From an uncultured Gemmatimonadaceae bacterium (lineage in GTDB: Bacteria; Gemmatimonadota; Gemmatimonadetes; Gemmatimonadales; GWC2-71-9), in NCBI GenBank assembly GCA_964518955.1, contig CAZFHS010000029.1, positions 15,963-79,962 of the forward strand: DNA of 64,000 nucleotides, read 5' to 3'. A program made the position numbers and the translations under genes. Below the pieces are notes generated by a model, which did no database searches, was not told the origin of the DNA, and saw nothing but the letters and a program-made list of their open reading frames with translations. Shown piece after piece: positions 9,219 to 50,176 of the stretch. Each line of letters begins with the position of its first letter. Within the stretch, counting starts at the first letter, position 1.

Positions 9219-9223
9219 GGGCG

Positions 9224-10132: not shown

Positions 10133-11172
10133 CTCACTCCCTCCTCCTGCAGATCCTTGATGACGGCCGGCGGGTTGATGCCAGCAAGACAGACGTTGCC
10201 GCAGCGATTGCATCCGACACACTTCGGTTGCTCGAACGCTTCGGCGAACCCACGGTGCTGATGGTAGTAACGGTACTTCAACCGAGTATCACGGCCGGGG
10301 CGGAAATTGTGCCCGCCCGCGACTCTTGCGAAATCGATGAAGTTGCAAGAATGGAGCTGCTTCACGCGTGCTGCGGAGCTGCCGTCCAACGACTGGCACT
10401 CGGTCACCCCGTAGCAGTAGCAGGTCGGGCACACCATGGCGCAGCTACCGCAACTCAGGCACTTGTCACCCCAATGAGTCCAAACATCGGACTCGAATTC
10501 GATGTCCAGGAGATTCGAGAGGTTGTTGGCGTCGATCTTTGTCTTGAAACCGTCGGCGATTCGCTTACGCACATCCAGGTAATCCTGCGTGTCCGCATCG
10601 GTTATCTCGCGGGAGTCCACCTGTTGGAGGGCAGTAAAAGCAGTATCCGACCCCACGGCCACGAAGTAGCGATCTCCCAAATCTGTGAGGAAGAGGTCGA
10701 AGCCGTGAGTCACTGTGTCAGTGCCGAGTGAACGACAGAACCCGGTGTCACAGGGATCGTGATCGACACCCACGATGAAAGTGTTCTCTCGGCGAGACAC
10801 GTAGTAGGGGCTGGGGAAGTGACCACGAACGAACACTTTGTCCAACTTCAGAAGAGCATTTATATCGCACGCGTGCAAGCCGACAATGGCCCTCGGCTGC
10901 AGACGATACCTGATCTCCTGACTCCAATCGTCGTCGTCGAACTGGTACTCGGAAAGCGTCTCTTTGTAGGGCAGGAAGTACGTCTTTGCAGAATACTCCG
11001 TCGTCTCGTACTCCAAGTCGATCTCGGCAACTGTCTCCACCGGCAAGTACTGGTGGACGGCCCTACCTTCCTTGTCGGTGTTAATCCGCTTGGGACCTAT
11101 GACCTCGCCTGCCTGAAGCATATTCTCGGCGAGGCGCTTCCATTCATCTTTCGGCAAGATCCTGAACAGCAT
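10129..11172 (-). CDS. hydB: hydrogenase beta subunit, 4Fe-4S protein (sulfhydrogenase HydB / AsrA-like)
   Basis: Cys motifs CLSCGSCAMVCPTCYC and CVGCNRCGNVC. 347 aa. First gene of the four-gene set. Confidence 0.85.
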   Translation of the reverse strand: MLFRILPKDEWKRLAENMLQAGEVIGPKRINTDKEGRAVHQYLPVETVAEIDLEYETTEYSAKTYFLPYKETLSEYQFDDDDWSQEIRYRLQPRAIVGLHACDINALLKLDKVFVRGHFPSPYYVSRRENTFIVGVDHDPCDTGFCRSLGTDTVTHGFDLFLTDLGDRYFVAVGSDTAFTALQQVDSREITDADTQDYLDVRKRIADGFKTKIDANNLSNLLDIEFESDVWTHWGDKCLSCGSCAMVCPTCYCYGVTECQSLDGSSAARVKQLHSCNFIDFARVAGGHNFRPGRDTRLKYRYYHQHRGFAEAFEQPKCVGCNRCGNVCLAGINPPAVIKDLQEEGVR

Positions 11173-17040: not shown

Positions 17041-18030
17041 CTAGAAGAAGAACGGGAGGTTGAGGCCCTTTGTGATCGCCTTGGCACCCGCGAACAGAAG
17101 GAGACCGATCACTAGCCAGCGAACGAAGCTCGGCTTCGCAACCCTGAGAATTCGCACACCTATGAACGACCCAAGCATGATTCCGATTAGCGACGGAATT
17201 ACCATCATTGGAATCACGCACCCTTGATTGAGATACACCCAAGCCGCAGAAGTATCCGTTATCGAAAGGAGGAACTTGCTGGTCGCGACGCTGATCTTGA
17301 GCGGCGCTCCCATCACGAGATTCAGAACCGGCACGTTTGCCCAACCTGCACCCAAGCCAAACATGCCCGCCATGAGCCCGATGAAGATGAATAGGAACAG
17401 GCCTATCGGGGTACGATGAATCTTCCAGTCGACGTTCTTCCCAAGGCTGGCCTCAGTGTACACTCCGTATATGCCAAGCGCAGAGGAGAGCTTGTCCGCG
17501 ACGGGCACTTCTGGAAACTCAGATTTCTTGGCGGCGATCATCAGCGCCACTATACCGAGTATGGTTGCGCCGAGAGCGGTCTGAACCACGTTCGTGGGCA
17601 GAGCCAAACCAACCATTGCACCAATTATGGCGCACGTCGAAGCGATGAGCGCTACCGGCATCGCTAGTCGGAGACTTGCCAGGTTCATCTTCAGAAAGCC
17701 AGGCCCCGCAGCGAGCGCGCCACTCAAGGCAACCAACAAACCCGCGCCACGAACGAAATCGAGATGGAATGGGAAGAAACCGCTGACGATGGGGACAAAG
17801 AGGACTCCGCCGCCAACTCCACCCAACGCCGCCAATATCCCCATAACGAAAGTCAGTACCAACAAGATCAATGGCCATGCCCACCAAGCCATCTGATCTC
17901 CGCCCGTCATGACACCTGCTTCTTGCACCGCATGAAGGAGGGTCGGATGAGCTGCCAATGCCATGGTGACCACTGCGGCTACGCGAGTAAACATCAGAAA
18001 GCTGCGCATTCGCATCGTGTTGTCTTTCAT
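17041..18030 (-). CDS. TauE/SafE (DUF81) family sulfite/anion exporter-type permease
   Basis: 329 aa polytopic protein with the Gly-rich helices typical of the family (GGVGGGVLFVPI, GLGAGWANVPVLN). The ATG overlaps the dsrN stop (ATGA at 18027..18030). Confidence 0.8.
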   Translation of the reverse strand: MKDNTMRMRSFLMFTRVAAVVTMALAAHPTLLHAVQEAGVMTGGDQMAWWAWPLILLVLTFVMGILAALGGVGGGVLFVPIVSGFFPFHLDFVRGAGLLVALSGALAAGPGFLKMNLASLRLAMPVALIASTCAIIGAMVGLALPTNVVQTALGATILGIVALMIAAKKSEFPEVPVADKLSSALGIYGVYTEASLGKNVDWKIHRTPIGLFLFIFIGLMAGMFGLGAGWANVPVLNLVMGAPLKISVATSKFLLSITDTSAAWVYLNQGCVIPMMVIPSLIGIMLGSFIGVRILRVAKPSFVRWLVIGLLLFAGAKAITKGLNLPFFF

Positions 18031-19430
18031 GATTGAGGTTCTGTTTGTGCGCTGTTCTTGAAACGAACCGCAGCTTCAACGACGGCCGCTGCCCAGCTCT
18101 CAGTTCCCAAAGCGTGCACGTGAGTGTAGGAGGCTAGCACGTTGTAACGACATATGCCATCCCGTTCCCCGTCAAACCCAACACCGCGATGCACCTTGAA
18201 TGCAAACGTCACATCATCCAGGTCAACTGATTGCATATACGTGTAGTGAAACTCGTGCCCTCGCAGGGATTTTCCGACCGGAAAGAACGGATTTTTCGAT
18301 ATCGTTTCGACTTCAACATAGCCATGACCCTGCGGCCGTTTTTTGAATCCGTACGTTACGGGAAGCACGTTGGCCATGGGATACTCGTGCGACTCGAAAA
18401 TCAGTTTTTTCCCCAAGAACACTGCACCGCCACATTCGGCATAGACGGGCACACCTAGTTCGATCTTCTCTCGGACAGAACTCAGGAAGCTACCGTTCAC
18501 AGACAGTTCCGGAGCTAGAGTCTCGGGAAAGCCGCCACCAATATAGAGTCCATCGACATCGGGGAGTTCTTTGTCGGTGGTTGGCGAGATCTCCACGAGA
18601 TTCGCTCCCTCCCGTGCCAAACCCTCTAAGTTCTCCGGATAGTAGAACTGAAATGCCGCGTCACGGAACACGCCTATGTTCGCTCTCGCGGAATCACTCC
18701 GTTCAACCAGGACATTCGCGGTCGGCTCGGCTTCGAGCACGGGCGCTTCCTGCGCAACATGCCAAATCGCATCGAGATCCAGGTGCTTCTCTCCCACTTC
18801 TGCGACTTTCTGAATCGCAGCCTGCTTCTCGTCGTGCTCCTGAGGCGGAACTAGGCCGAGGTGTCTTTCTGGAAAGATCTCCTCTCGAATCCGCGGAATG
18901 ACCCCTAGGACAGGAATTTCGCAGACCTGCTCGACAGCGTCTCGTATGACGGTTTCATGACGCGAGCCAGCGATTTGATTGAGCACCGCACCTCTGATCT
19001 GCACTTTCGGATCCAGCTTCAAACAACCCAGTATCAAGGCCGCAATAGTCCGAGTCGATTTAGTGCAGTCTACCGCGAGCACGACTGGCGCCGACAACAG
19101 TTTTGCCAACTCGGCGCTGCTGTAGCTTCCCTCGGCATCCATGCCGTCGAACAAACCGCGGTTGCCCTCGATGACGGCTACGTCAGATTGTGCCGCCGCC
19201 GCACCGAACGAAGACAAAACGCCCTGCCGGGACATGAGGTACAGATCCATGTTCCGGCAGGGCTCACCTGCTGCGGCAGATAACCAGGCCGCGTCAATGT
19301 AATCGGGGCCCTTTTTGAAAGGAGCCACCTTCATACCGTTTTTTCGCCAAGCTGCAACCAAACCCAACGAGACCAGCGTTTTTCCGCTGCCTCCACGCAA
19401 CCCGGCTATGAGGACGCGGGGAAAACTCAG
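18027..19430 (-). CDS. dsrN: cobyrinic acid a,c-diamide synthase homologue (DsrN, putative siroheme amidase)
   Basis: CbiA/CobB landmarks: P-loop GGSGKT, and a C-terminal glutamine amidotransferase part (YAECGG). It sits directly after dsrL. The track start (TTG 19400) removes the beta-strand before the P-loop. The frame upstream reads SFPRVLIAGLRGGSGKT and is open only back to TAG 19446..19448. CTG 19430 has GGAG 7 nt upstream. Confidence 0.75.
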   Translation of the reverse strand: MSFPRVLIAGLRGGSGKTLVSLGLVAAWRKNGMKVAPFKKGPDYIDAAWLSAAAGEPCRNMDLYLMSRQGVLSSFGAAAAQSDVAVIEGNRGLFDGMDAEGSYSSAELAKLLSAPVVLAVDCTKSTRTIAALILGCLKLDPKVQIRGAVLNQIAGSRHETVIRDAVEQVCEIPVLGVIPRIREEIFPERHLGLVPPQEHDEKQAAIQKVAEVGEKHLDLDAIWHVAQEAPVLEAEPTANVLVERSDSARANIGVFRDAAFQFYYPENLEGLAREGANLVEISPTTDKELPDVDGLYIGGGFPETLAPELSVNGSFLSSVREKIELGVPVYAECGGAVFLGKKLIFESHEYPMANVLPVTYGFKKRPQGHGYVEVETISKNPFFPVGKSLRGHEFHYTYMQSVDLDDVTFAFKVHRGVGFDGERDGICRYNVLASYTHVHALGTESWAAAVVEAAVRFKNSAQTEPQS

Positions 19431-19434
19431 CGCG

Positions 19435-21117
19435 TCACTCCATATCTATGAAGCCGCAGGGGCATATTTCCGCACACTTCTTACAACCGGTGCAGTTGCC
19501 GAGCTTCCACCCGTAGAGAGTGCCTTTCTCCATCGGCTTCTCAATCGCCTGGTCCTGGCAGTACAACCAGCACTTTTCGCAGTCCATGCAATACCCGCAG
19601 CTCATGCACCGCTTGCTCTCTTCAATTGACTGCTCCTCGGTGAGCGCCAAATTCGCTTCTGCATCCATATTCGCGAAGCGCTCTTCGACCGAGAGCTTGC
19701 CTGCTTCGAGCCGATCAGCCTTTGGATAGTGATCGAGCTGCATACGATCGGTCTTGATTATCGGCTGACCGTTATCCTGCTTTTCCAGACTGCGGAACCT
19801 ACGGTCAATTGCCTCTGCAGCGTACCGGCCGTGCCCGATCGCGTCAGTCACCAGCGCGAGGTTTGTTGCATCGCCACCAGCCCAGACATTGTCGACTTTG
19901 GTCGACTCAAACTCGTCGTTCACCTTGATCCAGTCTCTGCCCTCGATGAGGGAATCGAGACCCATGAAGTCGGGTTCCTGACTGATCGCAGGGATGACCA
20001 TCGTAGCAGGGATCTCAAACTCAGACCCCTCCAAAGGCACCGGGCGCCTTCTGCCGGAGTCATCCGGCTCACCCAGTTCCATGCGGATGCACTGCATGCT
20101 CGTGATGTTGTTGCCGTCCTTGTTGAAACCGATGGGCGCGGCGAGATATTCCAGCTTTATGTCCTCTTCCTGCGCTTCCTCGATCTCTTCATCGATCGCG
20201 GGCATCTCTTTGATGGTACGGCGGTACAGGATCGTTGTTGTGGCGCCGAAACGTTTACAGATACGCGCGGCGTCGATGGCAGTGTCACCACCACCGACAA
20301 CGATGACGTTGTCTCCAACGTCTACAGTCTCACCGTGATGGACACGATTGAGGAACTCCACGCCCGACATGACGTTGTCCGCTTCCTCGCCCTCGACTCT
20401 GAGCTTCAAACCCTTCTCAGCACCGATTGCGACGAACACCGCCTGATACTCCGCACGCAGGTCGTCGAACGAAATGTCTTTGCCAACCCGAGTGTTCAGC
20501 TTCAGCTCAACACCGAGATCGACGATGTTCTGGATCTCTTTGTCGATGATGTCCGCAGGCAGCCTGTACCTCGGGATACCCCACAGCAGCATTCCGCCCG
20601 GCTTGTCAGCGGCCTCGAATACCGTAACCGAGTATCCGCGCCTCGCGAGTTGATACGCGCAAGAGAAACCTCCCGGGCCTCCACCTACAACGGCGACCTT
20701 CTCCGGGCGTTTCTCTTCGGTCATCATCTTCAACTTCAGGCCGTTGTTCAGCCCGAAGTCGCCAATAACACGCTCAACCTTGTTGATGCCTACAGCACCA
20801 TCGAGTTCGATTCTGTTGCAGCCAGTCTCACACGGGTGTGGACAAACGCGACCGCAGACGGAAGGAAACGGACTCGTGTCCGTGTAGCTCTCCCACGCTT
20901 CGGTGAAGGCCTGGTCTTTCGGCTTCTCGAGTCGCTCAGCCTGAGCGATAGTGGTCAGCCAGTCTCTGATGCGATTCCCACTGGGGCAGGCGTCTTGGCA
21001 CGGAGGTTTCTTGGTCACGTGCTTTGGTCTCAGTGGAGACTGTTCTCTGCCTCCACCGGAACTGGACGCGCTGTAATCTCGTTTCCGCTTCTTCTTCTTA
21101 GTTTTCTTTACAGCCAT
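19435..21117 (-). CDS. dsrL: NAD(P)H:acceptor oxidoreductase, GltD-like iron-sulfur flavoprotein with C-terminal ferredoxin domain (DsrL)
   Basis: N-terminal Fe-S motifs CQDACPSGN and CGRVCPHPCETGCNR. Two dinucleotide folds (VAVVGGGPGGFSCAY, VIVVGGGDTAIDAAR). C-terminal CMSCGYCMDCEKC...CTGCKKCAEICP. Position between dsrD and dsrN. Confidence 0.75.
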   Translation of the reverse strand: MAVKKTKKKKRKRDYSASSSGGGREQSPLRPKHVTKKPPCQDACPSGNRIRDWLTTIAQAERLEKPKDQAFTEAWESYTDTSPFPSVCGRVCPHPCETGCNRIELDGAVGINKVERVIGDFGLNNGLKLKMMTEEKRPEKVAVVGGGPGGFSCAYQLARRGYSVTVFEAADKPGGMLLWGIPRYRLPADIIDKEIQNIVDLGVELKLNTRVGKDISFDDLRAEYQAVFVAIGAEKGLKLRVEGEEADNVMSGVEFLNRVHHGETVDVGDNVIVVGGGDTAIDAARICKRFGATTTILYRRTIKEMPAIDEEIEEAQEEDIKLEYLAAPIGFNKDGNNITSMQCIRMELGEPDDSGRRRPVPLEGSEFEIPATMVIPAISQEPDFMGLDSLIEGRDWIKVNDEFESTKVDNVWAGGDATNLALVTDAIGHGRYAAEAIDRRFRSLEKQDNGQPIIKTDRMQLDHYPKADRLEAGKLSVEERFANMDAEANLALTEEQSIEESKRCMSCGYCMDCEKCWLYCQDQAIEKPMEKGTLYGWKLGNCTGCKKCAEICPCGFIDME

Positions 21118-21180
21118 TAGTCATACCTCGACCCGCGCCCACAGTGGCGAGGGCAATACGGGCATTACGCCCGTGATTAT

Positions 21181-21213
21181 TTTGAAAAGCCGACGGCTAT
21201 GTTAGCCGTCAGC
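21181..21213 (-). terminator. stem-loop plus U-tract at the end of dsrD (putative intrinsic terminator/attenuator before dsrL)
   Basis: The minus strand reads GCTGACGGCTA-ACA-TAGCCGTCGGC followed by TTTTCAAAATAAT. The stem is 11 bp with one G.U pair and includes the dsrD stop codon. Confidence 0.5.
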
Positions 21214-21459
21214 CCCTTCCGCTGCTCCCTCGGCATGAGGAAGCTCAATGAAGCTGCCACCAAAGTAGGTATACACACACCTACCGGAGTCCATGAGCGT
21301 GCGAATCGCAAGCTTACACTGCTTCTTGTCGACTCCATCGGCAGCATACTTCTGAATCATCGCCTTGGTCAAATCGCCGGCCTTGAACTTCTTCTTGCCT
21401 TGATACTCTTTGACCATCTCGAACATGGCGTCCGCAATTTCTTCTGGCGTGACGGCCAT
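21202..21459 (-). CDS. dsrD: DsrD (small winged-helix protein of reductive dsr operons)
   Basis: 85 aa, directly downstream of dsrB. Lys-rich KKKFKAGDL stretch and a C-terminal ...GRCVYTYFGGSFIEL pattern resembling the DsrD ...YWSSGSTTMY region. Confidence 0.7.
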   Translation of the reverse strand: MAVTPEEIADAMFEMVKEYQGKKKFKAGDLTKAMIQKYAADGVDKKQCKLAIRTLMDSGRCVYTYFGGSFIELPHAEGAAEGADG

Positions 21460-21470
21460 TCTGATACCTC

Positions 21471-22550
21471 CTAGTGTCTGAGCTGTGCGGACCGCTTATA
21501 GGTCAGACCCGCATGCTTGAAGTCATCGATGTGTTCCTTCTGGAACTCGATGCCGGTCATTTCAAAGAACTTCGGCCAACCGATACGCTCGATGAACTCG
21601 CCCATACGCTCGAACTTGCGCGCGTTGTTCGCCCAGACCTCGACGATGTTGCGTACGGCGTCTGTTACTTCGGGCCAACGCGGCGGGTTGTTCGGGATGA
21701 ATGGAATTGCAAGCTTCGAGAACGTAGGTTCGCTACGTGCATTCGATACCTTGCCGCCAACCCAGATCGACACACCGTCGTTCAGCGGATCGGCCATCGG
21801 CAGAGACGGGCAGACCGTGAAGCAGTTCGCGCAGAACATGCAGAGGTCTTCGTCGATCTCGATAGATGGATTGCCGTCGACAGTGGCGGGCCTGATCGCC
21901 GCCGTCGGGCAGGAGGCTATGACGTTCGGGATCTCGCAAAGCTTGTTCAACGTGGCGTGATCGGCCTTCGGGGGCCTGCGGTGAATCCCGAGAATCGCGA
22001 TGTCCGAGCAGTGCACGGCGCCGCACATGTTGAGACAACATGCCAGGGCGATGCGAAGTTTGCCCGGTACGTCGGTTCCTGTGAAGTGATCGTGCAGATC
22101 GTCCATCACGCACTTCACTACGCCGGAAGCGTCAGTTGCTGCCGAGTGGCAGTGCACCCAACCCTGCGTGTGCACGATGTTGGAGATCGCGTTGCCGATA
22201 CCACCAACTGAGTGTCCATGACCTTTGAGCTCTTCAATCAGCTCGTCGATCCTGGTGTCCTCGGTGAGCAAGAACTCGACATTGTTGCGGCTGGTGAACC
22301 GCAAGTGACCATCGCAGTACTTCTCTGCCATGTCAGCAAACTTGCGGATGGTGGTTGTGCTGAGCAGTCTCGGTGACGCCGCACGCACTGTGAAAATCTT
22401 ATCGCCAGACTCGGCCACGTGCACCATGACGCCTGGCTTTAACCTCTCGTGGTATTTCCACTTACCGTAGTTCTTTTTGATGACGGGATGTAGGAACTTC
22501 TCATAATTTGGAGGTCCAATATCCGTTATTCTGTCCTTTGATACTGCCAT
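21471..22550 (-). CDS. dsrB: dissimilatory sulfite reductase beta subunit
   Basis: N-terminal [20 protein letters not shown], siroheme/Fe-S Cys motifs, and an inserted ferredoxin domain CPTAAIRP...[12 protein letters not shown]. Adjacent to dsrA. Confidence 0.95.
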
Positions 22551-22617
22551 CGCTCTATCTCCCCATTGGTACGATTAGTCTCAAGGTTCGCATGTTGGAT
22601 AAGTCAGCCCAACTGCG

Positions 22618-23835
22618 CTATTCGTCATCCTCTTCCTCATCCTCGTCGCCTTCCTCGTAATAATCTTCGTAGAAGACGTACGGATTGTCCCTGGGGTGCG
22701 AGACCATCTGCGGAATCGGATCCACCTCGATCTCCTCCAAGAAGTTGCCGAGACCGATACGCTGCATGAGCTCACCACAACGCTCACGGTTCTTACCGTT
22801 CTCGCCCCAGAAGTCCCAGATCCGTTCGATGAGATCTTTGAGTTCATCGTAGGGAGGCTCGATTTTCATGAATGGAACGATGACCGATGACAGCAGAGCA
22901 CCCTCTACGATCGGTGCCTTCGAGCCGAGTAGAATCGTGGCTCCCGTGTCTACACCCGGGCGCAGCGCCTTCGGCATTGCGTTGATGCAGTGCATGCACT
23001 TCACGCAGTTGGAATCATCGATCTTTAGTTCTTTGCCGTCCCATTCGATGCACTTGGTGGGACAGTTGTAACAAACATCCTTGTGGATGTCGAGCCCGGC
23101 CTTTTCAGCAGCCTTCACCTCTGCCTGGTCGATCCTGATCTCGTCACGCCAAGTTCCGATCACTGACAAGTCGGCACGCGCAACCGATGCAACACAGTCG
23201 TTCGGACAGCCGGCGAACTTGAACTTGAACTTGTACGGGAACGCGGGCCGGTGAAGTTCATCCTGAAAATCCTGCGTCAGCGTGTAACAAGTGTTCAACG
23301 TGTCGTAGCACGCCCACTCGCACCTTGCCGGGCCAACGCACGCACTTGGGGTCCGCATGTCGGATCCGGATCCGCCGAGGTCGAAATCGTTGGCGGTCAA
23401 ATCCGCAAACGTGGGCTCCAGATCCTCTGTGCGACAGCCGAGCAGAATGATGTCACCGGTCGATCCGTGCATGTTGGTGAGTCCGGAACCGTGCTTGTCC
23501 CAGATGTCACAGATCGTCCGCAGTGCGTCGGACGTGTAGAACCAACCTGTGGGCATGTTGATACGCATGGTATGGAAATGCGCGATCTCCGGGAAGTCTT
23601 CGGGCAGGTCGTTGTAGCGTCCGATGACGCCACCACCGTAACCCATAACGCCCACGATGCCGCCGTGCTTCCAGTGGCCGATCTTCTCGCTGTAGGACCG
23701 TTCGAGCAGTCTCAATAGAGCCGCGCTCGACTCCTTCGTTTCGGCAGCCTCCTTGATCTGCGTGACGAAGCTGGGCCAGGGTCCTTTTTCCAGTTCGTCC
23801 AGCAACGGAGTGCCATTGTTACCTGAATCTGCCAT
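22618..23835 (-). CDS. dsrA: dissimilatory sulfite reductase alpha subunit
   Basis: Start at ATG 23835 (SD GGAGAGGAA). [46 protein letters not shown], and ferredoxin domain [11 protein letters not shown]...CVKCMHCIN. Unusual poly-acidic C-terminus. Confidence 0.95.
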
Positions 23836-23923
23836 TTTGTTTCCTCTCCGCTTGGAATGATGGCGTTTTGTTGATCTCTTCAAATGTGTCTCAACTACAG
23901 TACTTCAACCTCACATCTATTCG

Positions 23924-23950
23924 AAAAAACAGGACACCGGCATCGCCGGT
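23924..23950 (-). terminator. short stem-loop and T6 tract just after dsrP (possible terminator separating dsrMKJOP from dsrAB)
   Basis: The minus strand reads ACCGGC-GAT-GCCGGT, then GTCCTG, then TTTTTT. It starts 3 nt after the dsrP stop. Confidence 0.4.
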
Positions 23951-23952
23951 AC

Positions 23953-25113
23953 CTATGCTGGTCCCAACCGCTCTCGGACCGACGTTATGATCTTGTAAAA
24001 GATCGTCAACAGCATGAACCCGATCGCATAGACTCCGATCATTATCACAATCTCTGGCAGGGTCGGAATGTACTCCGTGACCTGCCCCAACGGCGCCGGT
24101 ATGAAACCGATCACAACCATACCCACACCCTTTTCTATCCAGAGCGAGAGTATGACCCCAACAGCCAGTACGGCAAGAAAAGTCTCGTTAGCACGCGCCT
24201 TGGGCACCCAAAGTGCCACGAGGCAGAACACCCCGATTAGCTGACCGATCCACATCAACGGCGCTAGGGTATTGGCACCCTCTAGTCCGAAGAACATGTA
24301 GCGGAAGGCATCGGTATGGTGAGGCATGCTGGAGTACATGACCGTGAACAACTCAACCAACAAGAAGAACAGGTTGATGGCCACGGCATACGCCACGATC
24401 ATGGCGAGCTTCTGGATTGCCGCTTTGCCCGCATCAAACGTCGTGAAGCGCCTCAGTATCAGAGCCAGTAAGATCAAAAGGCTGGGGCCCGTCGCGAACG
24501 CCGAGGCTAGGAAACGGGGCGCGAGGATCGCCGTCATCCAGAATGTGCGAGCCTCCAAGCCGGAATACAGAAACGCAGTCACTGTGTGAATGCTGACCGC
24601 CCACGGTATCGACAGGAAAATCAGTGGCTTGACCCACTTCGGAGGCGGGGCACCCTTTCGCTCAGCTTCAAAGGTCACGGCACCGATCACGAGATTCAGT
24701 CCGAGATAGCCCGACAGCACGAGCATATCCCAAAACATCACCGAGTTGGGAGTGGGGTGCAGGATGATGTTTGCGCCGCGCGCCGGCTGGCCAAGGTCGA
24801 CGAAGACGAATAGCATGCACATGAGGACCGAAGACACTGCCAGTCCTTCACCGATGATCACCATCTTCCCGAAAGCTTTGTAGTCGTGCAGATAGTACGG
24901 AAGCACGACCATAACCGCTGACGCCGCGATACCCACCATGAAGGTGAGCTGTGCGATGTAAATCCCCCAGGTGATGTCCTGGTTCATTCCGGTAATGTGC
25001 AGTCCTTCACTCAGCTGATAGCCCCAGGTGGCCAAACCAATGAGGATTAGCACTCCCCAGAAGCCAACCAGTGTCCAATAGCCCCGGCCCCCTCGGATTG
25101 CATCCTGCAGCAT
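23953..25113 (-). CDS. dsrP: DsrP, NrfD/PsrC-like integral membrane quinone-interacting subunit
   Basis: 386 aa, about 10 hydrophobic helices. Last gene of the dsrMKJOP set, after the ferredoxin-like DsrO. Confidence 0.85.
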   Translation of the reverse strand: MLQDAIRGGRGYWTLVGFWGVLILIGLATWGYQLSEGLHITGMNQDITWGIYIAQLTFMVGIAASAVMVVLPYYLHDYKAFGKMVIIGEGLAVSSVLMCMLFVFVDLGQPARGANIILHPTPNSVMFWDMLVLSGYLGLNLVIGAVTFEAERKGAPPPKWVKPLIFLSIPWAVSIHTVTAFLYSGLEARTFWMTAILAPRFLASAFATGPSLLILLALILRRFTTFDAGKAAIQKLAMIVAYAVAINLFFLLVELFTVMYSSMPHHTDAFRYMFFGLEGANTLAPLMWIGQLIGVFCLVALWVPKARANETFLAVLAVGVILSLWIEKGVGMVVIGFIPAPLGQVTEYIPTLPEIVIMIGVYAIGFMLLTIFYKIITSVRERLGPA

Positions 25114-25154
25114 ATATCTACCTCTCCGTTATCACTATCTAACCCGACGCGGCG

Positions 25155-25961
25155 TTAGATGATGTAATAGACATTGGGGCCGGTCCCGAGACCGACGCGT
25201 CTGCTAATCGTGTGGTTGTCGTGCAGGAGCTGACTGACATCCGAGTTTGGATCCGTCAGATCTCCAAACGTCAGCGCACCTTCACCACCTTCAACGGTAT
25301 TTGCCGCCTCAACACATGCCGGCAGCTCTCCTATACGGACACGCTCCGCGCAGAAATTGCACTTCTCCACCACACCCTTGGTGCGACTGGGATAGTCGGA
25401 CGGGAGATTCCCGTCAGCGTCCGTCTCTATGAACGGGCGTGGATCACGCCAGTTGAAGCTCCGAGAACCGTAAGGGCATGCGGCCATACAGTACCGGCAG
25501 CCTATGCAGCGGTGCATGTCCATCATCACGAGGCCGTCGGTTTCCCTCTTCCACGTTGCTTGCGTCGGGCACACTCGCACGCATGGTGGATTCGTGCAAT
25601 GGTTACACAGCACCATGATTGGTATATCACCCACAGATGCGGGTGTATGATCGTGCACCTGTTCCGGGAACACGTGTTTGTATTCCTCTTCCCAGATCCA
25701 GGCTATATCGTCGTCGGCCTCGGGGATGTTCGGCACGTTGTGCGCAACATTGCACGCATCTACGCACGCGTGACGGACCGCTTCACTCTGACACTTCTCG
25801 ACGTCGATCACCATTGCCCACTGGTTATCGGAACGCAGCGGGATATGATGCTCGTGCTCTCCAGCCTCAGAACACGCCGTGTTCAACAGCGGCAAACCCC
25901 AACCGAGCCCCAAAGCCGTCTTGCCAGCCTTCTCCAGGAAACTGCGTCTGCTCTCATCCAT
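25155..25961 (-). CDS. dsrO: DsrO, periplasmic 4Fe-4S ferredoxin-like subunit with Tat signal
   Basis: Tat signal SRRSFLEKAGK. Multiple 4Fe-4S motifs (CNHCTNPPCVRVCP, CIGCRYCMAACP, CNFCAERV). Confidence 0.85.
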   Translation of the reverse strand: MDESRRSFLEKAGKTALGLGWGLPLLNTACSEAGEHEHHIPLRSDNQWAMVIDVEKCQSEAVRHACVDACNVAHNVPNIPEADDDIAWIWEEEYKHVFPEQVHDHTPASVGDIPIMVLCNHCTNPPCVRVCPTQATWKRETDGLVMMDMHRCIGCRYCMAACPYGSRSFNWRDPRPFIETDADGNLPSDYPSRTKGVVEKCNFCAERVRIGELPACVEAANTVEGGEGALTFGDLTDPNSDVSQLLHDNHTISRRVGLGTGPNVYYII

Positions 25962-25964
25962 CGC

Positions 25965-26378
25965 TCAGTTTCCTCTCGGCTCGACGTGACAGTCCCAACA
26001 CAGCGGTGTCACATTCGAATAGTCATGGCACCTAGTGCAAAACGTGTCCCTATCGTCATGACAACTCATACACGTCCCCGTAAGACTCATTGTGTACTGC
26101 TGGCCTGAAGCTGACGTGTATTCCGTTTCCCCGTCACGCACCAATGCGTTACGCCAATCGTTCAGGATGTCCATGTGGTTCGCTCTCATGAACTCGGTGT
26201 CCTCAATGCACGCAGTCTCACCCGCAGGATACTCGAGTTCGGGCATCGCTACCTCACCACCAGCGACGACCGTACTCCAAAGCGGATACGTCACCAACAC
26301 CAGGAAAACGACCAATCCGCCAATGATCTTTCCTCTATCACTCATCGGTGTCGCCTCCGTTGTCTTCGGCTTCGCCAC
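25965..26378 (-). CDS. dsrJ: DsrJ, trihaem periplasmic cytochrome c
   Basis: One N-terminal transmembrane helix. Three CxxCH motifs (CMSCH, CTRCH, CWDCH). The start could alternatively be ATG 26345; either way it overlaps the dsrK 3' end. Confidence 0.85.
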   Translation of the reverse strand: MAKPKTTEATPMSDRGKIIGGLVVFLVLVTYPLWSTVVAGGEVAMPELEYPAGETACIEDTEFMRANHMDILNDWRNALVRDGETEYTSASGQQYTMSLTGTCMSCHDDRDTFCTRCHDYSNVTPLCWDCHVEPRGN

Positions 26379-27996
26379 CGTCAGCCCACGCTGGGATCTC
26401 CTCCAGTCGCAGGTTCTCGGTGCGTTTCTTCTCGCCCTTGAAGGTCATCGCATTCGCGACCATTTCGCTGATACCTGTCACCTGAACTCCGGGGGCCCAG
26501 TAGTCGCAGACTGTGATCAGCGTTGCCCTGTCGATAGCACACATAGCCGCAAGGAAATTGACTCCGTGTTTCTCCTGCACGTATCTGACAGCGTTGCCTC
26601 TCGGTAGTCCGCCACGCAGCCGCATCTCCATGTTCTCATCGGTTCCCAGCCCCGCACCACCTCCACAACAGAAGGTCTGCTCGCGGATCGTGTTCTCCGG
26701 CATCTCGAAGTAGTTGTTGCACACGTTCTTGATCACGAAGCGTGGTTCTTCGAAGATTCCCATGGCTCGGGCCGGGTTGCAGGAATCGTGAAGTGTCACG
26801 CGGATATGGTCGTTTCTCGCCGGATCAATGTTGAGCTTCTTGTGTCTGATCAAGTCAGCCACGAACTCCATGAGGTGAATCATTTTCGTGGAGCGCGCGT
26901 TCTCGAATACGGTGCCCGTGATCGGTGACTTCGGTACCTCGAGGAAATCGGCCGGGCCATTCATCGTGTCCATGTACTGATTGATCACCCGCCACATATG
27001 ACCGCACTCGCCACCCAGGATCCACTTGACGCCCAGGCGCTTGGCCTCAGCGTAGATCTTGTTGTTGAGGCGTTTCATCATCTCGTGCGATGTGAACAAC
27101 CCGAAGTTGCCGCCGTCCGAAGCGTATGTGCTCCACGTGTAATCGATCCCCAGCTCGTGGAACAACAGCATATATGCCATGCACGTGTAGATACCGGGTG
27201 CAGCCACGAAGTCACCCGAAGGGGTAACGAACAGAATCTCGGCGCCCTTCTTGTTGACCGGGATGTCAACCTTGATGCCGGTTGTTTCTTCTATGTCGTC
27301 CGCCATGAACTCCAGTGTGTCCATCAGACCGTGCGGCTGAATCGCGAGGTGATTGCCAAACTTGAAGCAGTTGGCTACCGGTTCCAGGACCCAGTTGACA
27401 TAGAGTCCCAACAGGCCGAGCAGTTCCCGTCCAATCATCGTTACTTCGGCTGTGTCGATGCCGTAGGGGCAGAACACGGAACAGCGCCGGCACTCAGTGC
27501 ACTGGAAGAAGTAGTAGAACCACTCCTTGATGACATCTACCGTCAGCTCACGACCGCCGGCTAGCTTGCCGAAGACTTTTCCAAGCGCGGTGAAATCTTT
27601 CCGGTATATGGACCGAATCAACTCCGCCCGGAGAACCGGCATGTTCTTCGGATCACCACTGCCGATGAAGAAATGGCACTTGTCTGCGCACGCACCGCAA
27701 CGAATACACGTATCCATGAAGATCTTGAAAGAGCGGTACTTGGTCAGGCGTTCGGCCATCCCTTCGAGGACGATCCTTTTCCAATCTTCCTGAAGGTGCC
27801 AATCGGCATCGGTGACCGCCCAATCCCTCGGATTCGGCAGGTCCACGACCTTTAGGTTCTTTGCCTTACCCGGATATATGAATGAGCCCCGCCTGAAGTC
27901 CACAGGCGTTTCCGTCCACGGTGTCGGTGGAGGCGCGGTATTGATGTTCAGCAGGTCTTCCTGCTTGTAATAATCAGGTTCGTCTGGCGTCGACAT
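26338..27996 (-). CDS. dsrK: DsrK, HdrD-like catalytic Fe-S subunit (CCG domains)
   Basis: CIRCGACADKC and CTECRRCSVFCP ferredoxin motifs. C-terminal CCG-type motif ...FCCGGGAG... Confidence 0.9.
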   Translation of the reverse strand: MSTPDEPDYYKQEDLLNINTAPPPTPWTETPVDFRRGSFIYPGKAKNLKVVDLPNPRDWAVTDADWHLQEDWKRIVLEGMAERLTKYRSFKIFMDTCIRCGACADKCHFFIGSGDPKNMPVLRAELIRSIYRKDFTALGKVFGKLAGGRELTVDVIKEWFYYFFQCTECRRCSVFCPYGIDTAEVTMIGRELLGLLGLYVNWVLEPVANCFKFGNHLAIQPHGLMDTLEFMADDIEETTGIKVDIPVNKKGAEILFVTPSGDFVAAPGIYTCMAYMLLFHELGIDYTWSTYASDGGNFGLFTSHEMMKRLNNKIYAEAKRLGVKWILGGECGHMWRVINQYMDTMNGPADFLEVPKSPITGTVFENARSTKMIHLMEFVADLIRHKKLNIDPARNDHIRVTLHDSCNPARAMGIFEEPRFVIKNVCNNYFEMPENTIREQTFCCGGGAGLGTDENMEMRLRGGLPRGNAVRYVQEKHGVNFLAAMCAIDRATLITVCDYWAPGVQVTGISEMVANAMTFKGEKKRTENLRLEEIPAWADGGEAEDNGGDTDE

Positions 27997-27998
27997 CG

Positions 27999-28988
27999 CT
28001 ATTCCCTCTCGACCGGTATCCCGGCCCCCTTCATCTTGTCCCTGAGTTCATCTTCATATTCGTCGTACGGATGCAACTTGACTGGGTAATCCCAGGGGTT
28101 GATATGCCTCACCGCTCGGTTGTTGTTCGCCATATTCCTGGTTGGGCTCAGGAATACGCCTGCCATGTGCATCAACTTACCAAACGGGATGTACGCGATC
28201 AGCACGCAAACTAAGAACAAATGTCCGTAGAAAATCGGGCTGATCGTATCGGGCACAGTCGGCGAGAAATGAGTCAGACCCAAGAACATTTCCTTGATCG
28301 CCGGAATATCGGTCTTGGTCAGATGTCTGAGTGAGAAACCGCTCAAGCCAATACCCAACAACAGGAATAGCGGTACGTAGTCTCCCACGAGCGATATGTA
28401 TCGCAGCTGTGGGTTGGCCAGTCTTCTGTAGAGAAGGTATGCCAGCCCCACAATGAAGATCACCGTCGTGGCAAAGAACACAGGCAGCCCTACCTGAAGA
28501 AAACCGTCGGCCACCTCGACGAAAGTCACAAAGCCCGGCACCGGACTGACCATCAGCCTCAGGTGTCGCACGAGAATGAAGAGAAGTGACCAGTGCATCG
28601 CCATGGCCGCCAACCACAAAGACAGGTCGGTGCCATATACGAGTCGGCCTTCATCGATCAATTTCGACTTCGTGTTCCTCAGTAGCGACCGGAACAGGAG
28701 GATCTCCATCGCCATCCTGCCGGACGTGGTTAGAAAGTTGTGTGGATTATCCAGCTTGTCGTGCTTGATCCAGGGCAAGGTCTTCTGCTGCCCGCAGGTT
28801 GTCGGGATACGGAATGGAACAGGAACTTTTGCCCAACCCAGCACTCGGTACACCAGACCACCGAGAAACAGCGCTATCGCTATGTAAGGCAGGATTACAC
28901 CGAATATCCATCCCAATCCCGGCACAGCGCCGAGCAAGCCCAGCAAGAACAGGCCACCCACGAATGCCAGGGAAACCACTACGTTCAT
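27999..28988 (-). CDS. dsrM: DsrM, NarI-like dihaem cytochrome b membrane subunit
   Basis: 329 aa, 5-6 transmembrane helices with conserved His residues. Immediately precedes dsrK (2-nt gap). Confidence 0.85.
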   Translation of the reverse strand: MNVVVSLAFVGGLFLLGLLGAVPGLGWIFGVILPYIAIALFLGGLVYRVLGWAKVPVPFRIPTTCGQQKTLPWIKHDKLDNPHNFLTTSGRMAMEILLFRSLLRNTKSKLIDEGRLVYGTDLSLWLAAMAMHWSLLFILVRHLRLMVSPVPGFVTFVEVADGFLQVGLPVFFATTVIFIVGLAYLLYRRLANPQLRYISLVGDYVPLFLLLGIGLSGFSLRHLTKTDIPAIKEMFLGLTHFSPTVPDTISPIFYGHLFLVCVLIAYIPFGKLMHMAGVFLSPTRNMANNNRAVRHINPWDYPVKLHPYDEYEDELRDKMKGAGIPVERE

Positions 28989-29010
28989 CGGAGATCCTCT
29001 CGTCGTACGT

Positions 29011-29562
29011 TCACGCTCTCGGACTCTCGTTATCCAAATCGGCCTCGACCAACTCCGGGCCGCCTTCGCGTTTGTTCAACTTTTCGACGATCCAAGACAC
29101 GCTTCGTTTCAACTCGTTCGAGCGTATCTCGAACACTTGCTCGCGGCATTCCACATAGACATCGAACGCGGCAAGAGCGACTTCGTCGATATTGCGTTCA
29201 AACATCCGAAACTCTGCCGAGATGTCTTCATGATCCAGAACTGCCGCTGCCTCTTCTCGAACTATGGTCTTCAGCTTGAAGATGAAATCCAACGCAGCAG
29301 ACGGTTCACACTGCTGTACTGCTCGAATCTTGACGATCTCAGCTAGGTGTCGGCGGATCTTCTCGGCACCCTGACATTCCAGGATGCCCTCGAAGATCGC
29401 CAACGTTCCTTCTCGCAGGCTGTGCCCCACTGGATTGGCAAATTGATTCTTCTGTTTGCCAAATGCAGCCGAGGCATCTCGGGCGTAAAGAGAAAGCGCT
29501 TCGTCGAGCCACCGCCCAACGATCTGCTCCTTCTTTTGTTCGAGTGTCTCTCTAAGGGCCAA
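29011..29562 (-). CDS. dsrT: DsrT-like protein (RsbRD N-terminal-domain family)
   Basis: 183 aa directly upstream of dsrM. Motif QFANPVGHSL and N-terminal KKEQIVGRWLDEAL, as I recall for DsrT/RsbRD_N proteins. Confidence 0.55.
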   Translation of the reverse strand: MALRETLEQKKEQIVGRWLDEALSLYARDASAAFGKQKNQFANPVGHSLREGTLAIFEGILECQGAEKIRRHLAEIVKIRAVQQCEPSAALDFIFKLKTIVREEAAAVLDHEDISAEFRMFERNIDEVALAAFDVYVECREQVFEIRSNELKRSVSWIVEKLNKREGGPELVEADLDNESPRA

Positions 29563-29609
29563 CGGTCAGCTCCACCGGAGACACAGTCTGCTCTTCTGCA
29601 ACTCTCGAA

Positions 29610-29927
29610 TTAGACGCAGCCAGTAGGCTTCGGAAGCCCGGCGACCTTGCAGGCGCCCTTCGCGGGGCCGCTTGGGAACAGGTCGTAGATCTCCTTGAGC
29701 TTGAAACCGGTCGCTTTGCACAACTTGCGGATCATAGGAGCCATGTTGAACTCGAGGTAATATTCTCTCAAGTAGTTCACGAGCTTCCAGTGATCATCGG
29801 TCAACTCATCGACGCCTTCGGTCTTGGCCAACGAAGCGGCAACGGCCTCATCCCACTGATCCGGATCCTGGATGAACCCGTCCTCGTCGATCTCCAGCAT
29901 TTTGCCACCAAGTTCAACCTCTGCCAT
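29610..29927 (-). CDS. dsrC: DsrC (TusE/DsrC/DsvC family sulfur carrier)
   Basis: 105 aa. The C-terminal arm ...GPAKGACKVAGLPKPTGCV carries both conserved cysteines, spaced 10 residues apart, one of them penultimate. Confidence 0.95.
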   Translation of the reverse strand: MAEVELGGKMLEIDEDGFIQDPDQWDEAVAASLAKTEGVDELTDDHWKLVNYLREYYLEFNMAPMIRKLCKATGFKLKEIYDLFPSGPAKGACKVAGLPKPTGCV

Positions 29928-30388: not shown

Positions 30389-31588
30389 TCAGCCGTCCAA
30401 CGACTGGTAGTATCCCATCAAGATCTTCGCCACTTCAGGCCGTGCGAACTCGGGAGGAAGATCCTCACCCTTACCGAGCATCTCGCGAACCTTGGTGCCT
30501 GACAGGAACACGAAGTCTTCCTTCTTGTGGCCTTCCGGGGCCTCGCGCATCATGATCACGTCGCCTACGACGTGGGAATACGCCGTGTGGTCGGCCGCAA
30601 AGATCTGCAGTTCGAGCGAGCCTTCAGGCACTTCGTCGAAGATCGTCTGCGCATCGAACGGGCCGTAGTAATCTCCGACGCCGGCATGGTCACGACCAAC
30701 GATCAGGTGCGAAGCACCCATGTTCTGGCGGAAGACGGCGTGTAGCACGGCCTCACGCGGACCCGCGTAGAGCATGTCAAAGCCGTATCCCGTGATCTCG
30801 GCGGTATTCGGCTCAAAGTAGAGCTCGACCATCTTGCGGATCGCTGCATCACGAACGTCTGCGGGTATGTCACCCTTCTTGAGCTTACCGAGCAGCATGT
30901 GAATCACTGCACCGTCGGCGCCCACCCGCTCCATCGCGATCTTGACCAGCGCTTCGTGCGCACGGTGCATCGGATTACGAGTCTGGAACGCAACGACCTT
31001 CGACCAGCCATCCTCTTCCAGCTTGTTGCGGATTTCCACAGCCGTACGGAAGGTTTCCGGGAAATCAGCGGCAAAATAGGAGTAGCTCAGCACCTGGATT
31101 GGGCCGGCAATGAACGTTTTGCCTACGGACATCCAGTTTTTCACTCCCGGATGCTCGGTGTCTGTCGTCGCAAAGATCTTCTCAGACATCATCTTCATCT
31201 GATCGTCTGTCGCCTCATCGATGGACTCGACGTCCTGAATGGCGATTACCGGATTTCCGTCGACGTTCGGATCGAGCAATGCGATACGCTTGGCGTCGCC
31301 GATAGCGGAAGCGTCTTCAACGACGTTCACGATCGGTACAGGCCAAAACAGACCGTCTGTGGTCTTCATGCCCTCTGCAACGGACAGGGAGTCCGCGAGA
31401 TTCATATAACCTTTGAGCGGGTTGAAATAACCCGATCCCATCATCACCGCGTTCGCGGCCGCCTGCGAGCAGACGAGCAGCTTCGGCAGTCCCTCGGCTT
31501 CTTTCAGCAACTCAGCACGCTTCGCGTCGTCCGCCACGTACAGCGGGTTCAAAGTATCCGAACCATGCGGTTTGACTAGCTGGCCCAT
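30389..31588 (-). CDS. sat: sulfate adenylyltransferase (ATP sulfurylase)
   Basis: FQTRNPMHRAHE and VGRDHAGVG signature motifs. 399 aa. Confidence 0.95.
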   Translation of the reverse strand: MGQLVKPHGSDTLNPLYVADDAKRAELLKEAEGLPKLLVCSQAAANAVMMGSGYFNPLKGYMNLADSLSVAEGMKTTDGLFWPVPIVNVVEDASAIGDAKRIALLDPNVDGNPVIAIQDVESIDEATDDQMKMMSEKIFATTDTEHPGVKNWMSVGKTFIAGPIQVLSYSYFAADFPETFRTAVEIRNKLEEDGWSKVVAFQTRNPMHRAHEALVKIAMERVGADGAVIHMLLGKLKKGDIPADVRDAAIRKMVELYFEPNTAEITGYGFDMLYAGPREAVLHAVFRQNMGASHLIVGRDHAGVGDYYGPFDAQTIFDEVPEGSLELQIFAADHTAYSHVVGDVIMMREAPEGHKKEDFVFLSGTKVREMLGKGEDLPPEFARPEVAKILMGYYQSLDG

Positions 31589-31623
31589 GGACCCATCCTT
31601 CCTTTCGTTCGTTGTTATTCAGT

Positions 31624-31647
31624 GGAGGAAGAAGCTGCCGTTCCTCC
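31624..31647 (-). other. intercistronic stem-loop between qmoC and sat
   Basis: GGAGGAA-N10-TTCCTCC inverted repeat (7 bp) beginning right after the qmoC stop. No U-tract follows. Confidence 0.3.
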
Positions 31648-31649
31648 AG

Positions 31650-32876: not shown

Positions 32877-32910
32877 TTAGGGCATCCTCCCATAAACCCC
32901 GATAGCCTAA

Positions 32911-35163: not shown

Positions 35164-35167
35164 TTGT

Positions 35168-37335: not shown

Positions 37336-37616
37336 GGGGCGTCTCCTTCGGACTCATCCACGATCATCTCGCGTGTCGCGGCATCCGACCATACCGGTAG
37401 AGGTGAAGAAGCGCCTGTAGAAGGGTTGACTGCGAATCGATACGAAGCGTTTTGTTTGAACTGCTCCTTCATCCAACTCCAGCCGTTCTTGTAATAAGAA
37501 CAGTCATCATTGAAGCAAACAAAAAAGAACTCCTCATCCCATGAAGCATCGACGGGCACACGCCATTTGCTCAGGCGTGTATCGCAGTGAGGGCAGGTTC
37601 GCGAAAACTCTTTCAT
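37332..37616 (-). CDS. small zinc-ribbon-like protein (94 aa), function unknown
   Basis: CPHC...(22 aa)...CFNDDC four-Cys arrangement. Trp-rich (WSWMKEQF). Translationally coupled to the YkgJ-like gene. Confidence 0.5.
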   Translation of the reverse strand: MKEFSRTCPHCDTRLSKWRVPVDASWDEEFFFVCFNDDCSYYKNGWSWMKEQFKQNASYRFAVNPSTGASSPLPVWSDAATREMIVDESEGDAP

Positions 37617-37739
37617 TCGGTTCCTCGGTCGATCATCGTTGATTCATGCCGGCCTGGAAACCGTCCCTCGCCCAGCTGCGAAAGTCCGAATGCCTTTCGA
37701 GACAAAAAAGTTTCAAGAGGAGTCCAGGATGGGACCTGA

Positions 37740-37760: not shown

Positions 37761-37790
37761 CAAGATCCCAAGTACCATGAAGCCGTTTGG

Positions 37791-39683: not shown

Positions 39684-39749
39684 TTTCGTCTTTCTCCTTA
39701 GGAGTTCTTCTTGCTGAAGAAATCAGTCCGTTGAAAAAGTCCACTCACG

Positions 39750-50173: not shown

Positions 50174-50176
50174 GAT

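Follow-up and report, generated by a model that had tools for sequence, protein, structure and literature searches.

Does a gene cluster that carries both a dsrD-like gene and dsrL belong to a sulfate reducer or to a sulfur oxidizer? The question is raised by a stretch of DNA of 64,000 nucleotides (nt), referred to here as the window, from an uncultured Gemmatimonadaceae bacterium (contig CAZFHS010000029.1 of assembly GCA_964518955.1), in which dsrA, dsrB, a gene for an 85-residue protein, dsrL, and dsrN lie side by side. The cluster is most probably a transcription unit for a reductive-type dissimilatory sulfite reductase, situated in an island with a full gene set for sulfate reduction (aprBA, qmoABC, sat, dsrC, dsrT, and dsrMKJOP). 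The pairing of dsrD with dsrL is already known and was published by Anantharaman 2018, Loffler 2020, and Diao 2023; the additions to the published picture are confined to a gap in the annotation of DsrD and a lead on the charged tails of DsrA and DsrL.

Organization of the dsr cluster

The cluster runs from the dsrN stop codon (18027) to the dsrA ATG (23835), all on the minus strand, with intergenic gaps of 67, 11, 84, and 34 nt in the order dsrA, dsrB, dsrD-like gene, dsrL, and dsrN. An earlier note on this DNA had placed a dsrA-B-D-L-N gene set at 18027-23835, and the coordinates agree exactly with the open reading frame (ORF) calls, while the gene identities hold in scans by hidden Markov models (HMMs), except that the dsrD-like gene is identified by its position. 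The features of the cluster are as follows.

22618-23835, minus strand: dsrA, sulfite reductase alpha subunit, 405 residues; TIGR02064, 574 bits versus a cutoff of 393
21471-22550, minus strand: dsrB, sulfite reductase beta subunit, 359 residues; TIGR02066, 500 bits versus a cutoff of 342
21202-21459, minus strand: dsrD-like gene for an 85-residue winged-helix protein; position after dsrB, fold, and an indirect profile match
21118-21201, minus strand: dsrD-dsrL spacer of 84 nt with three stem-loops; fold computation
19435-21117, minus strand: dsrL, type DsrL-2, iron-sulfur flavoprotein NAD(P)H:acceptor oxidoreductase, 560 residues; NF009410 along the entire protein, 575 bits versus a cutoff of 516
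18027-19400, minus strand: dsrN, CobB/CbiA-type amidotransferase, 457 residues; NF002204, 433 bits versus a cutoff of 254
23923-23953, minus strand: canonical intrinsic terminator between dsrP and dsrA; 9-bp stem with 6 GC pairs, then CTGTTTTTTC

Because this terminator separates dsrP from dsrA, dsrA would open a transcription unit of its own, and the five genes from dsrA to dsrN are predicted to form a single unit. Promoter-like sites occur in the region no more often than in shuffled sequence and lend no promoter support to dsrL. An Rfam scan of 17.5-24.5 kb gave no match, and a tRNA search of the window found none. Sequences identical to the window proteins are present in NCBI, JGI, and ENA records.

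For comparison, a DsrD-linked reference set was formed from the best 80 of at least 579 loci in a species-representative genome collection. These best 80 loci repeat the order dsrT-MKJOP, dsrA, B, D, L, N, with two exceptions: a Zixibacteria locus that lacks dsrL and an Ignavibacteria locus that is ordered D-N-L. In nearly all related loci dsrN follows dsrL, and the window DsrN is 42-48% identical, over partial matches, to the product of the dsrN located after dsrP in oxidative loci. From its family membership, DsrN is a probable siroheme amidase.

DsrA is of the reductive type

References for the oxidative type were gathered by scanning metagenome contigs for the motif K-G-Y-W-K-G-G, which we take to be that of the rDSR primers, and 120 loci were obtained. 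Nearly all of these loci consist of dsrA and dsrB, a gap of ~1.2 kb that holds dsrEFH, and then dsrC, dsrM, dsrK, and dsrL. A tblastn search for oxidative references with DsrA against a plasmid collection gave no match, and an alignment search of viral contigs with DsrA returned no relatives. Two matches to the rDSR motif pattern in viral contigs were rejected as chance, with no dsr genes there.

A neighbor-joining tree of DsrA (400 columns, DsrB paralogues as the outgroup, bipartitions counted over 200 bootstraps) places the window protein with 99.5% support in a clade that comprises the DsrAs of DsrD-linked metagenome-assembled genomes (MAGs), Desulfovibrio vulgaris (2V4J), and Archaeoglobus fulgidus (3MM5). 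The window DsrA is 59-62% identical to the D. vulgaris and A. fulgidus proteins versus 44-49% to oxidative DsrA, and it carries the motif IGHWKHGG (WKHGG) where the oxidative set has YWKGG. Since it groups with the DsrA of sulfate reducers at this level of support and shows this contrast in identity, the window DsrA is, by tree position and identity, of the reductive bacterial type. The choice between a reductive and an oxidative branch for DsrAB, which the earlier note had left to a phylogenetic test, thus falls on the reductive branch for DsrA.

DsrL is a DsrL-2

The 560-residue protein comprises an N-terminal two-[4Fe-4S] domain, a flavin adenine dinucleotide (FAD) domain with an embedded nicotinamide adenine dinucleotide (phosphate), or NAD(P), domain, a linker, and a C-terminal two-[4Fe-4S] ferredoxin. 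Its Pfam domains are Fer4_20, Pyr_redox_2 with Pyr_redox, and Fer4_21, and its core aligns with NfnB-like modules in the PDB. Four local features are used in the comparisons below.

21040-21117, minus strand: N-terminal poly-lysine tail with Gly/Ser linker, MAVKKTKKKKRKRDYSASSSGGGREQ; composition conserved in 65 related DsrLs
21028-21039, minus strand: S27-P-L-R30, the distal-cluster ligand positions; Ser for NfnB Cys39 and Arg for NfnB Cys42
20218-20226, minus strand: YRR motif, Y298-R299-R300, in the NAD(P)-binding domain; from alignment
19438-19590, minus strand: C-terminal ferredoxin domain; two CxxCxxCxxxC motifs, at residues 510 and 542

In Loffler 2020, DsrL is recognized by a complete gene in an organism with dsrAB, unlinked to genes for pyruvate/ketoisovalerate:ferredoxin oxidoreductase (POR), and by Ser or Thr where NfnB has Cys39 (PMC7596348). 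All of the DsrL features of that study are found in the window protein, including the context, the N-terminal cluster domain, the FAD/NAD(P) core, the linker, and the ferredoxin. Its gene sits between dsrD and dsrN in a dsrAB context, with no POR genes nearby. The DsrL-like gene of 560 residues that had been proposed from the DNA is thereby confirmed by architecture and context, and no GltD or GltA model reaches its cutoff on the protein.

The type of DsrL was examined by comparison with ten DsrLs from oxidative loci (633-675 residues), which are DsrL-1A-like. The Allochromatium-type cluster dsrABEFHCMKLJOPNRS, in which DsrL-1A is found, is like the window in that it has dsrN and a DsrL of the same architecture with the Ser ligand and the C-terminal ferredoxin domain, but has an oxidative DsrA, contains dsrEFH, and lacks dsrD. 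The two kinds of DsrL differ in several respects. Residues S27-x-x-R30 are in register with the S/T-x-K-C (S-x-K-C-P) sequence of the oxidative-locus proteins, such that R30 stands opposite Cys; the S and R of this motif are unchanged in nearly all related DsrLs. The YRR motif is found in every related DsrL aligned at that site and in none of the oxidative-locus DsrLs, which instead have a 32-residue insertion just upstream of it that the window protein lacks. The linker before the ferredoxin domain is ~97 residues long in the window DsrL versus ~143 in oxidative loci, a difference of ~45 residues. In a tree, the window DsrL falls in a clade with DsrD-adjacent DsrLs, apart from the oxidative-locus DsrLs, with 100% support.

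Arginine at the position of NfnB Cys42 is a mark of the DsrL-2 proteins that are paired with reductive DsrA, and the Desulfurella amilsii enzyme DaDsrL-2 is NADP(H)-specific through YRR (PMC7596348). Taken together, YRR, Arg30, the missing insertion, and the short linker identify a DsrL-2 paired with reductive DsrA, and close relatives of the window protein are assigned to DsrL-2 in the tree of Loffler 2020 itself. By its motifs and tree position, the window DsrL is a DsrL-2, which settles the DsrL-1 versus DsrL-2 choice put forward as a check, and the variant found at the NAD(P)H-binding site is YRR at 298-300. By the published rule, the biochemically characterized DsrL-2 of D. amilsii resembles the window protein in having YRR, no DsrL-1A insertion, and a reductive DsrA, a likeness drawn without direct alignment. 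From the YRR motif and the biochemistry of its homologues, the window DsrL would use NADPH. In Diao 2023, the name DsrL-2C is given to DsrL found alongside DsrD and reductive DsrAB (PMC10591310); the label would apply to the window protein through its context, namely its DsrD-like and reductive DsrAB neighbors.

The 85-residue protein in the dsrD position

The gene for the 85-residue protein starts 11 nt after dsrB, and, among the 80 related loci, a related gene stands directly after dsrB in each one that holds the upstream DNA. The AlphaFold2 model of the protein (predicted local distance difference test score of 87) is a winged helix with the topology H-H-H-strand-strand. In the title and description of the paper on the DsrD structure, DsrD is compared with Z-DNA-binding domains.

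In D. vulgaris dsrABD (DsrD structure, 1UCR), dsrD likewise follows dsrB and encodes a lysine-rich winged helix of ~80 residues. The wing motif Y-x-x-x-G-[SG]-[ST] is in the same place in both proteins (YWSSGSTT in D. vulgaris and YTYFGGSF in the window). The window protein differs in having two non-conserved cysteines and, between helices 2 and 3, a few additional residues, D. vulgaris has no dsrL, and the similarity between the two proteins is seen only through profiles or intermediates: a phmmer search of D. vulgaris DsrD against 139 representatives of the family gave two weak matches only. A conserved-cysteine site in the 85-residue protein was considered and rejected, as C48 and C61 vary among its relatives.

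The intermediate is a relative designated P0235, which matches the window protein at E = 4.9e-5 (whole library) and passes the gathering score of the Pfam DsrD family PF08679 (27.1 versus 24.2 bits); its gene is followed by dsrN. Among 44 relatives, 11 match PF08679 at E <= 0.1, and P0235 alone scores above the gathering threshold. The protein encoded at this position in Planctomycetes RBG_13_63_9 is 82% identical to that of the window, and Planctomycetes are among the phyla with dsrABCD genomes in Anantharaman 2018, with a single Planctomycetes genome in the table (PMC6018805).

The family is large, with 1869 cluster-level homologues. Public sources (NCBI, JGI) name the window protein hypothetical. 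The DsrD subfamily to which it would belong escapes both Pfam and NCBIfam, and it is nearly always present alongside DsrL of the window clade. Distant relatives (28-43% identical; L206 5001-5237 and L207 968-1210) are found outside any dsr context, and the wider winged-helix family is therefore not confined to dsr operons.

The sulfate-reduction island and the direction of metabolism

Upstream of dsrA, the same strand carries, in order, aprB, aprA, a CxxCxxCC-domain gene, qmoABC, sat, an OsmC-like gene, dsrC, dsrT, and dsrMKJOP.

30389-40217, minus strand: sat, qmoC, qmoB, qmoA, the CxxCxxCC-domain gene, aprA, and aprB; module for sulfate activation and reduction of adenosine 5'-phosphosulfate
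23953-29927, minus strand: dsrC, dsrT, dsrM, dsrK, dsrJ, dsrO, and dsrP, upstream of dsrA
29610-29927, minus strand: dsrC; PF04358 DsrC recorded on an identical contig
29011-29562, minus strand: dsrT, in the upstream block before dsrMKJOP

Sat, AprA, AprB, and QmoC match curated HMMs above cutoff, as do DsrM, K, J, O, and P, for which every NCBIfam equivalog score exceeds its cutoff. DsrC ends in CKVAGLPKPTGCV, with both C-terminal cysteines present. Tblastn searches with DsrE, DsrF, and DsrH from four oxidative loci against the six frames of the window gave only noise (best E = 0.085), and none of the ~70 ORFs scanned in the window matches the DsrE or DsrH family, in accord with the claimed absence of dsrEFH from the window.

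The window gene set fits published rules for sulfate reduction (PMC6018805), and the presence of the cluster with sat, aprBA, qmoABC, dsrC, and dsrTMKJOP indicates sulfate or sulfite reduction or disproportionation. Reductive DsrAB with DsrL-2 and without dsrEFH is treated as an indicator of reduction in Loffler 2020 (PMC7596348), Ferreira 2022 (PMC8794893), and Diao 2023 (PMC10591310), and the dsrABDL-2 arrangement is described in the first of these (PMC7596348). Marine Gemmatimonadota clades carry clusters of DsrAB, SAT, AprAB, and QmoABC (PMC11316326).

Several observations weigh against the assignment of a reductive cluster, and the first concern the identity of the 85-residue protein, the least secure element of the earlier note. 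Even at E <= 10 the Pfam DsrD model gives no match to it, the protein has no Pfam, NCBIfam, or PDB sequence match of its own, and phmmer against 1UCR finds nothing. In a Foldseek search with the model, the top matches are Z-alpha and other generic winged helix-turn-helix domains, with 1UCR outside the top 50; the families MCM4_WHD and TBPIP score as high as DsrD on its relatives, and two distant relatives (P0255 and P0148) are outside dsr contexts. All of this could be expected of an unrelated small winged helix, for example a DNA-binding regulator, that occupies the dsrD position. Against that explanation stand the placement of the gene directly after dsrB wherever a related locus holds the upstream DNA, the length and topology that the protein shares with DsrD, the P0235 bridge, and the 82%-identical protein of RBG_13_63_9, from a lineage listed in Anantharaman 2018 as encoding dsrABCD. 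An hhalign comparison of the family profile with a Desulfovibrionaceae DsrD profile is also collinear, over 61 columns at E = 2.5e-4, albeit with a probability of just 43%. An unrelated winged helix is accordingly improbable, and the 85-residue protein is best regarded as a member of a putative divergent DsrD subfamily, with a slight residual chance of the former. The earlier designation of the gene as dsrD-like holds for its position and fold, but fails for a direct match to Pfam DsrD; homology would run through P0235 and the weak profile match. By analogy with homologue biochemistry, the protein would bind and activate DsrAB.

For the 560-residue protein, the adverse point is that its core is 42-45% identical to the NfnB-like PDB modules versus 35-38% to DsrL-1A, and its NCBIfam name is NAD(P)-binding protein only. 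The three-group tree cannot test the monophyly of DsrL with respect to NfnB, and the protein is therefore assigned to DsrL by its architecture, its N-terminal motif, and its context. An NfnB/GltD-type oxidoreductase that has no Dsr function and merely adjoins the dsr genes is exceedingly unlikely, however, given that the protein displays the full set of DsrL features of Loffler 2020, its N-terminal S-x-x-[C/R]-P motif in register with oxidative-locus DsrL, the linker and C-terminal two-cluster ferredoxin, and scores below the GltD and GltA cutoffs; moreover, its gene adjoins dsrD and dsrN across phylum labels, and its close relatives are placed in DsrL-2 by the tree of Loffler 2020.

The remaining adverse points concern the cluster as a whole. 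The operon is predicted from sequence; 64 kb of the genome are covered, and dsrEFH, sox, or sHdr could lie elsewhere in it; and the direction is beyond proof from sequence, as the same picture is given by disproportionators and by some sulfide oxidizers whose Dsr is of the reductive type (PMC6018805). The cluster might run oxidatively or switch, in which case DsrL would, as in sulfur oxidizers, carry electrons away from DsrAB to NAD(P)+. DsrL first became known as indispensable in sulfur oxidation, Desulfurivibrio and cable bacteria use reductive-type Dsr in sulfide oxidation or disproportionation (PMC6018805, PMC8794893), and a bidirectional group 3b hydrogenase is encoded near the cluster. 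Such a direction is nevertheless unlikely here: the window DsrA is in the reductive clade, DsrL carries YRR and Arg30, features of the DsrL-2 paired with reductive DsrA, and no dsrEFH is present within the window. In addition, the window has a DsrD-like gene, and organisms with oxidative-type rDsrAB lack DsrD (PMC8794893); sulfate reduction has been shown for an acidobacterium that carries both DsrD and DsrL-2 (PMC10564751). The view that the direction cannot be read from DsrD combined with DsrL thus survives in one part, in that disproportionation is not separable from reduction on genomic grounds; it is dated in the other, as reductive DsrAB, DsrL-2, and the lack of dsrEFH are now taken as pointing to reduction.

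With the reductive assignment preferred, the biochemistry of published homologues suggests how the proteins would act in the reductive direction, including activation by DsrD and the use of NADPH. Sat, AprBA, and QmoABC would supply sulfite from sulfate, and DsrAB together with DsrC would reduce it. The small winged-helix DsrD, an allosteric activator of DsrAB (PMC8794893), would bind DsrAB and activate it, while electrons from NADPH would reach DsrAB through DsrL-2. DsrN would amidate the siroheme cofactor, and DsrMKJOP would recycle the DsrC trisulfide. The hairpins after dsrD would probably keep dsrABD transcripts above dsrLN transcripts.

The dsrD-dsrL spacer

The 84-nt spacer folds into three hairpins (at about 21192-21210, 21158-21174, and 21131-21154) with a computed energy of -40.1 kcal/mol and z = -2.7 relative to shuffles. 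On the coding strand these hairpins form no canonical intrinsic terminator, and no U-run >= 5 follows any of the stems. The terminator-like hairpin that the earlier note saw after dsrD is therefore present as stem-loops, three in number, but is no canonical terminator, as the U-tract is missing. Among the spacers of 63 distinct related loci, the median z is -2.1 relative to dinucleotide shuffles, with z < 0 in 92%; most contain a strong GC stem, and their sequences differ. Conservation of structure and not of sequence fits a partial terminator or an mRNA stabilizer, and the spacer is, by its predicted fold, probably one of these two elements.

Charged tails of DsrA and DsrL

The C terminus of DsrA (22621-22668, minus strand) is poly-acidic, with Asp or Glu at 13 of the last 16 residues. 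The window DsrL opens with MAVKKTKKKKRKR, a run of lysines followed by a Gly/Ser linker, and 65 related DsrLs have a median of 9 Lys/Arg in the 30 residues before S-x-x-R. DsrL-1A lacks the poly-lysine tail, and the termini of DsrL-1A and of oxidative DsrA are different. Both tails occur together in ~50 related loci (among L003-L082), and both are missing in the Acidobacteriota loci L079 and L080. The net charges of the two tails correlate weakly (Spearman rho = 0.41, p = 0.004, n = 46, uncorrected for phylogeny). No mention of the tails was found in the Dsr literature examined.

The poly-acidic tail of DsrA and the poly-lysine tail of DsrL may, from their composition, constitute an electrostatic docking pair, a lead and not a finding. 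A more speculative extension, possible yet doubtful, is that this tether recruits DsrL-2 to DsrAB and, with the distinct DsrD subfamily, yields a DsrABD-L supercomplex that would act as a soluble, NADPH-driven sulfite reductase.

Distribution and comparison with related loci

The best 80 loci are labelled Gemmatimonadota, Planctomycetota, Longimicrobiales, Acidobacteriota, Ignavibacteria, Zixibacteria, and Sumerlaeota. The closest relatives of the window are marine MAGs labelled Gemmatimonadota, 89-98% identical (89-92% in DsrA, DsrB, and DsrL), and next come MAGs labelled Planctomycetota. Near-identical dsr clusters (L003-L082) are found under conflicting labels, namely Gemmatimonadota, Planctomycetota, Acidobacteriota, Thermodesulfobacteriota, and, on a 2.6-kb contig, Candidatus Nealsonbacteria. 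These conflicting labels point to mis-binning, inconsistent taxonomy, or lateral transfer.

Planctomycetes RBG_13_63_9 has the same gene order as the window, dsr(K)JOP, dsrA, dsrB, the gene for the 85-residue protein, dsrL, and dsrN. In addition to the 85-residue protein, DsrL (73% identical), DsrA (75%), and DsrB (79%) are similar to those of the window; RBG_13_63_9 is a different species-level lineage, and no functional difference is seen. In the DsrL and DsrA trees of the Loffler 2020 supplement, Gemmatimonadales and RBG_13_63_9 are sisters among the DsrL-2/reductive-DsrA lineages (PMC7596348). The Acidobacteriota loci (Ca. Sulfotelmatobacter, Sulfopaludibacter, and MAG CO124) resemble the window in having reductive DsrAB, DsrD, and a DsrL-2 with YRR and S-x-x-R. 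The acidobacterial loci L079-L081 differ from it in that the dsrD-dsrL gap is ~650 nt, dsrC-T-MK lie downstream, not upstream, DsrA has no poly-acidic tail, and DsrL no poly-lysine tail.

One locus (L210; GCA_042570905.1, JBHPGF010000039.1, 6001-9507) contains a dsrD-like gene, dsrL, and dsrN alone, with peptidase and lipase genes upstream and no dsrAB there. Such an arrangement suggests a module of D, L, and N able to move or persist together.

Neighboring genes

Within the island, a gene for a 299-residue protein with a CxxCxxCC domain (PF03692; 36436-37335, minus strand) is inserted between aprA and qmoA. Just upstream of aprBA lies a gene for a Rex redox-sensing repressor (40823-41455, minus strand), a candidate regulator of the island.

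On the other side of the cluster, a gene for a TauE/SafE-family permease overlaps the dsrN stop codon by 4 nt, and TauE recurs near dsrN in ~20 related loci. After the permease, the segment 13303-18030 (minus strand) encodes a 148-residue protein, a CysG-N-like precorrin-2 dehydrogenase, a ferrochelatase/GluTR-like fusion, and a multihaem cytochrome. Beyond aprB are CbiX and a cobA-hemD fusion (41596-43554, plus strand). With CysG-N-like, the ferrochelatase fusion, CbiX, cobA-hemD, and TauE nearby, siroheme synthesis and a possible sulfite/sulfate permease are clustered with dsr.

Farther out, 7162-11172 (minus strand) encodes the four subunits of a group 3b-like, NAD(P)-linked [NiFe] hydrogenase of the sulfhydrogenase type, which scores under the equivalog cutoffs; this hydrogenase type is also reported for some marine Gemmatimonadota (PMC11316326). 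At 46620-51122 (minus strand) and 55401-58893 (plus strand) are genes for two MinD-type ATPases with ferredoxin inserts, for CGGC-domain, ARMT1-like, and Nitro_FeMo-Co-domain proteins, and for DUF134. Near them are genes for an NUBPL/Mrp ATPase, DUF364 with DUF4213, and DUF1847. The MinD-type ATPase/CGGC/Nitro_FeMo-Co cluster presumably resembles the ORP metalloprotein cluster of Desulfovibrio.

Implications

Because the DsrD of the window clade is missed by Pfam and NCBIfam, annotation pipelines based on PF08679 will record no dsrD in these organisms and may get the direction of their metabolism wrong. The complementary tails of DsrA and DsrL offer a cheap, testable idea of how DsrL may dock on DsrAB. 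The pairing of dsrD and dsrL once blurred the distinction between sulfate reducers and sulfur oxidizers in genome-based calls; here it most likely resolves to the published reductive configuration, and the window would represent one more member of a lineage already on record as putatively sulfate-reducing.

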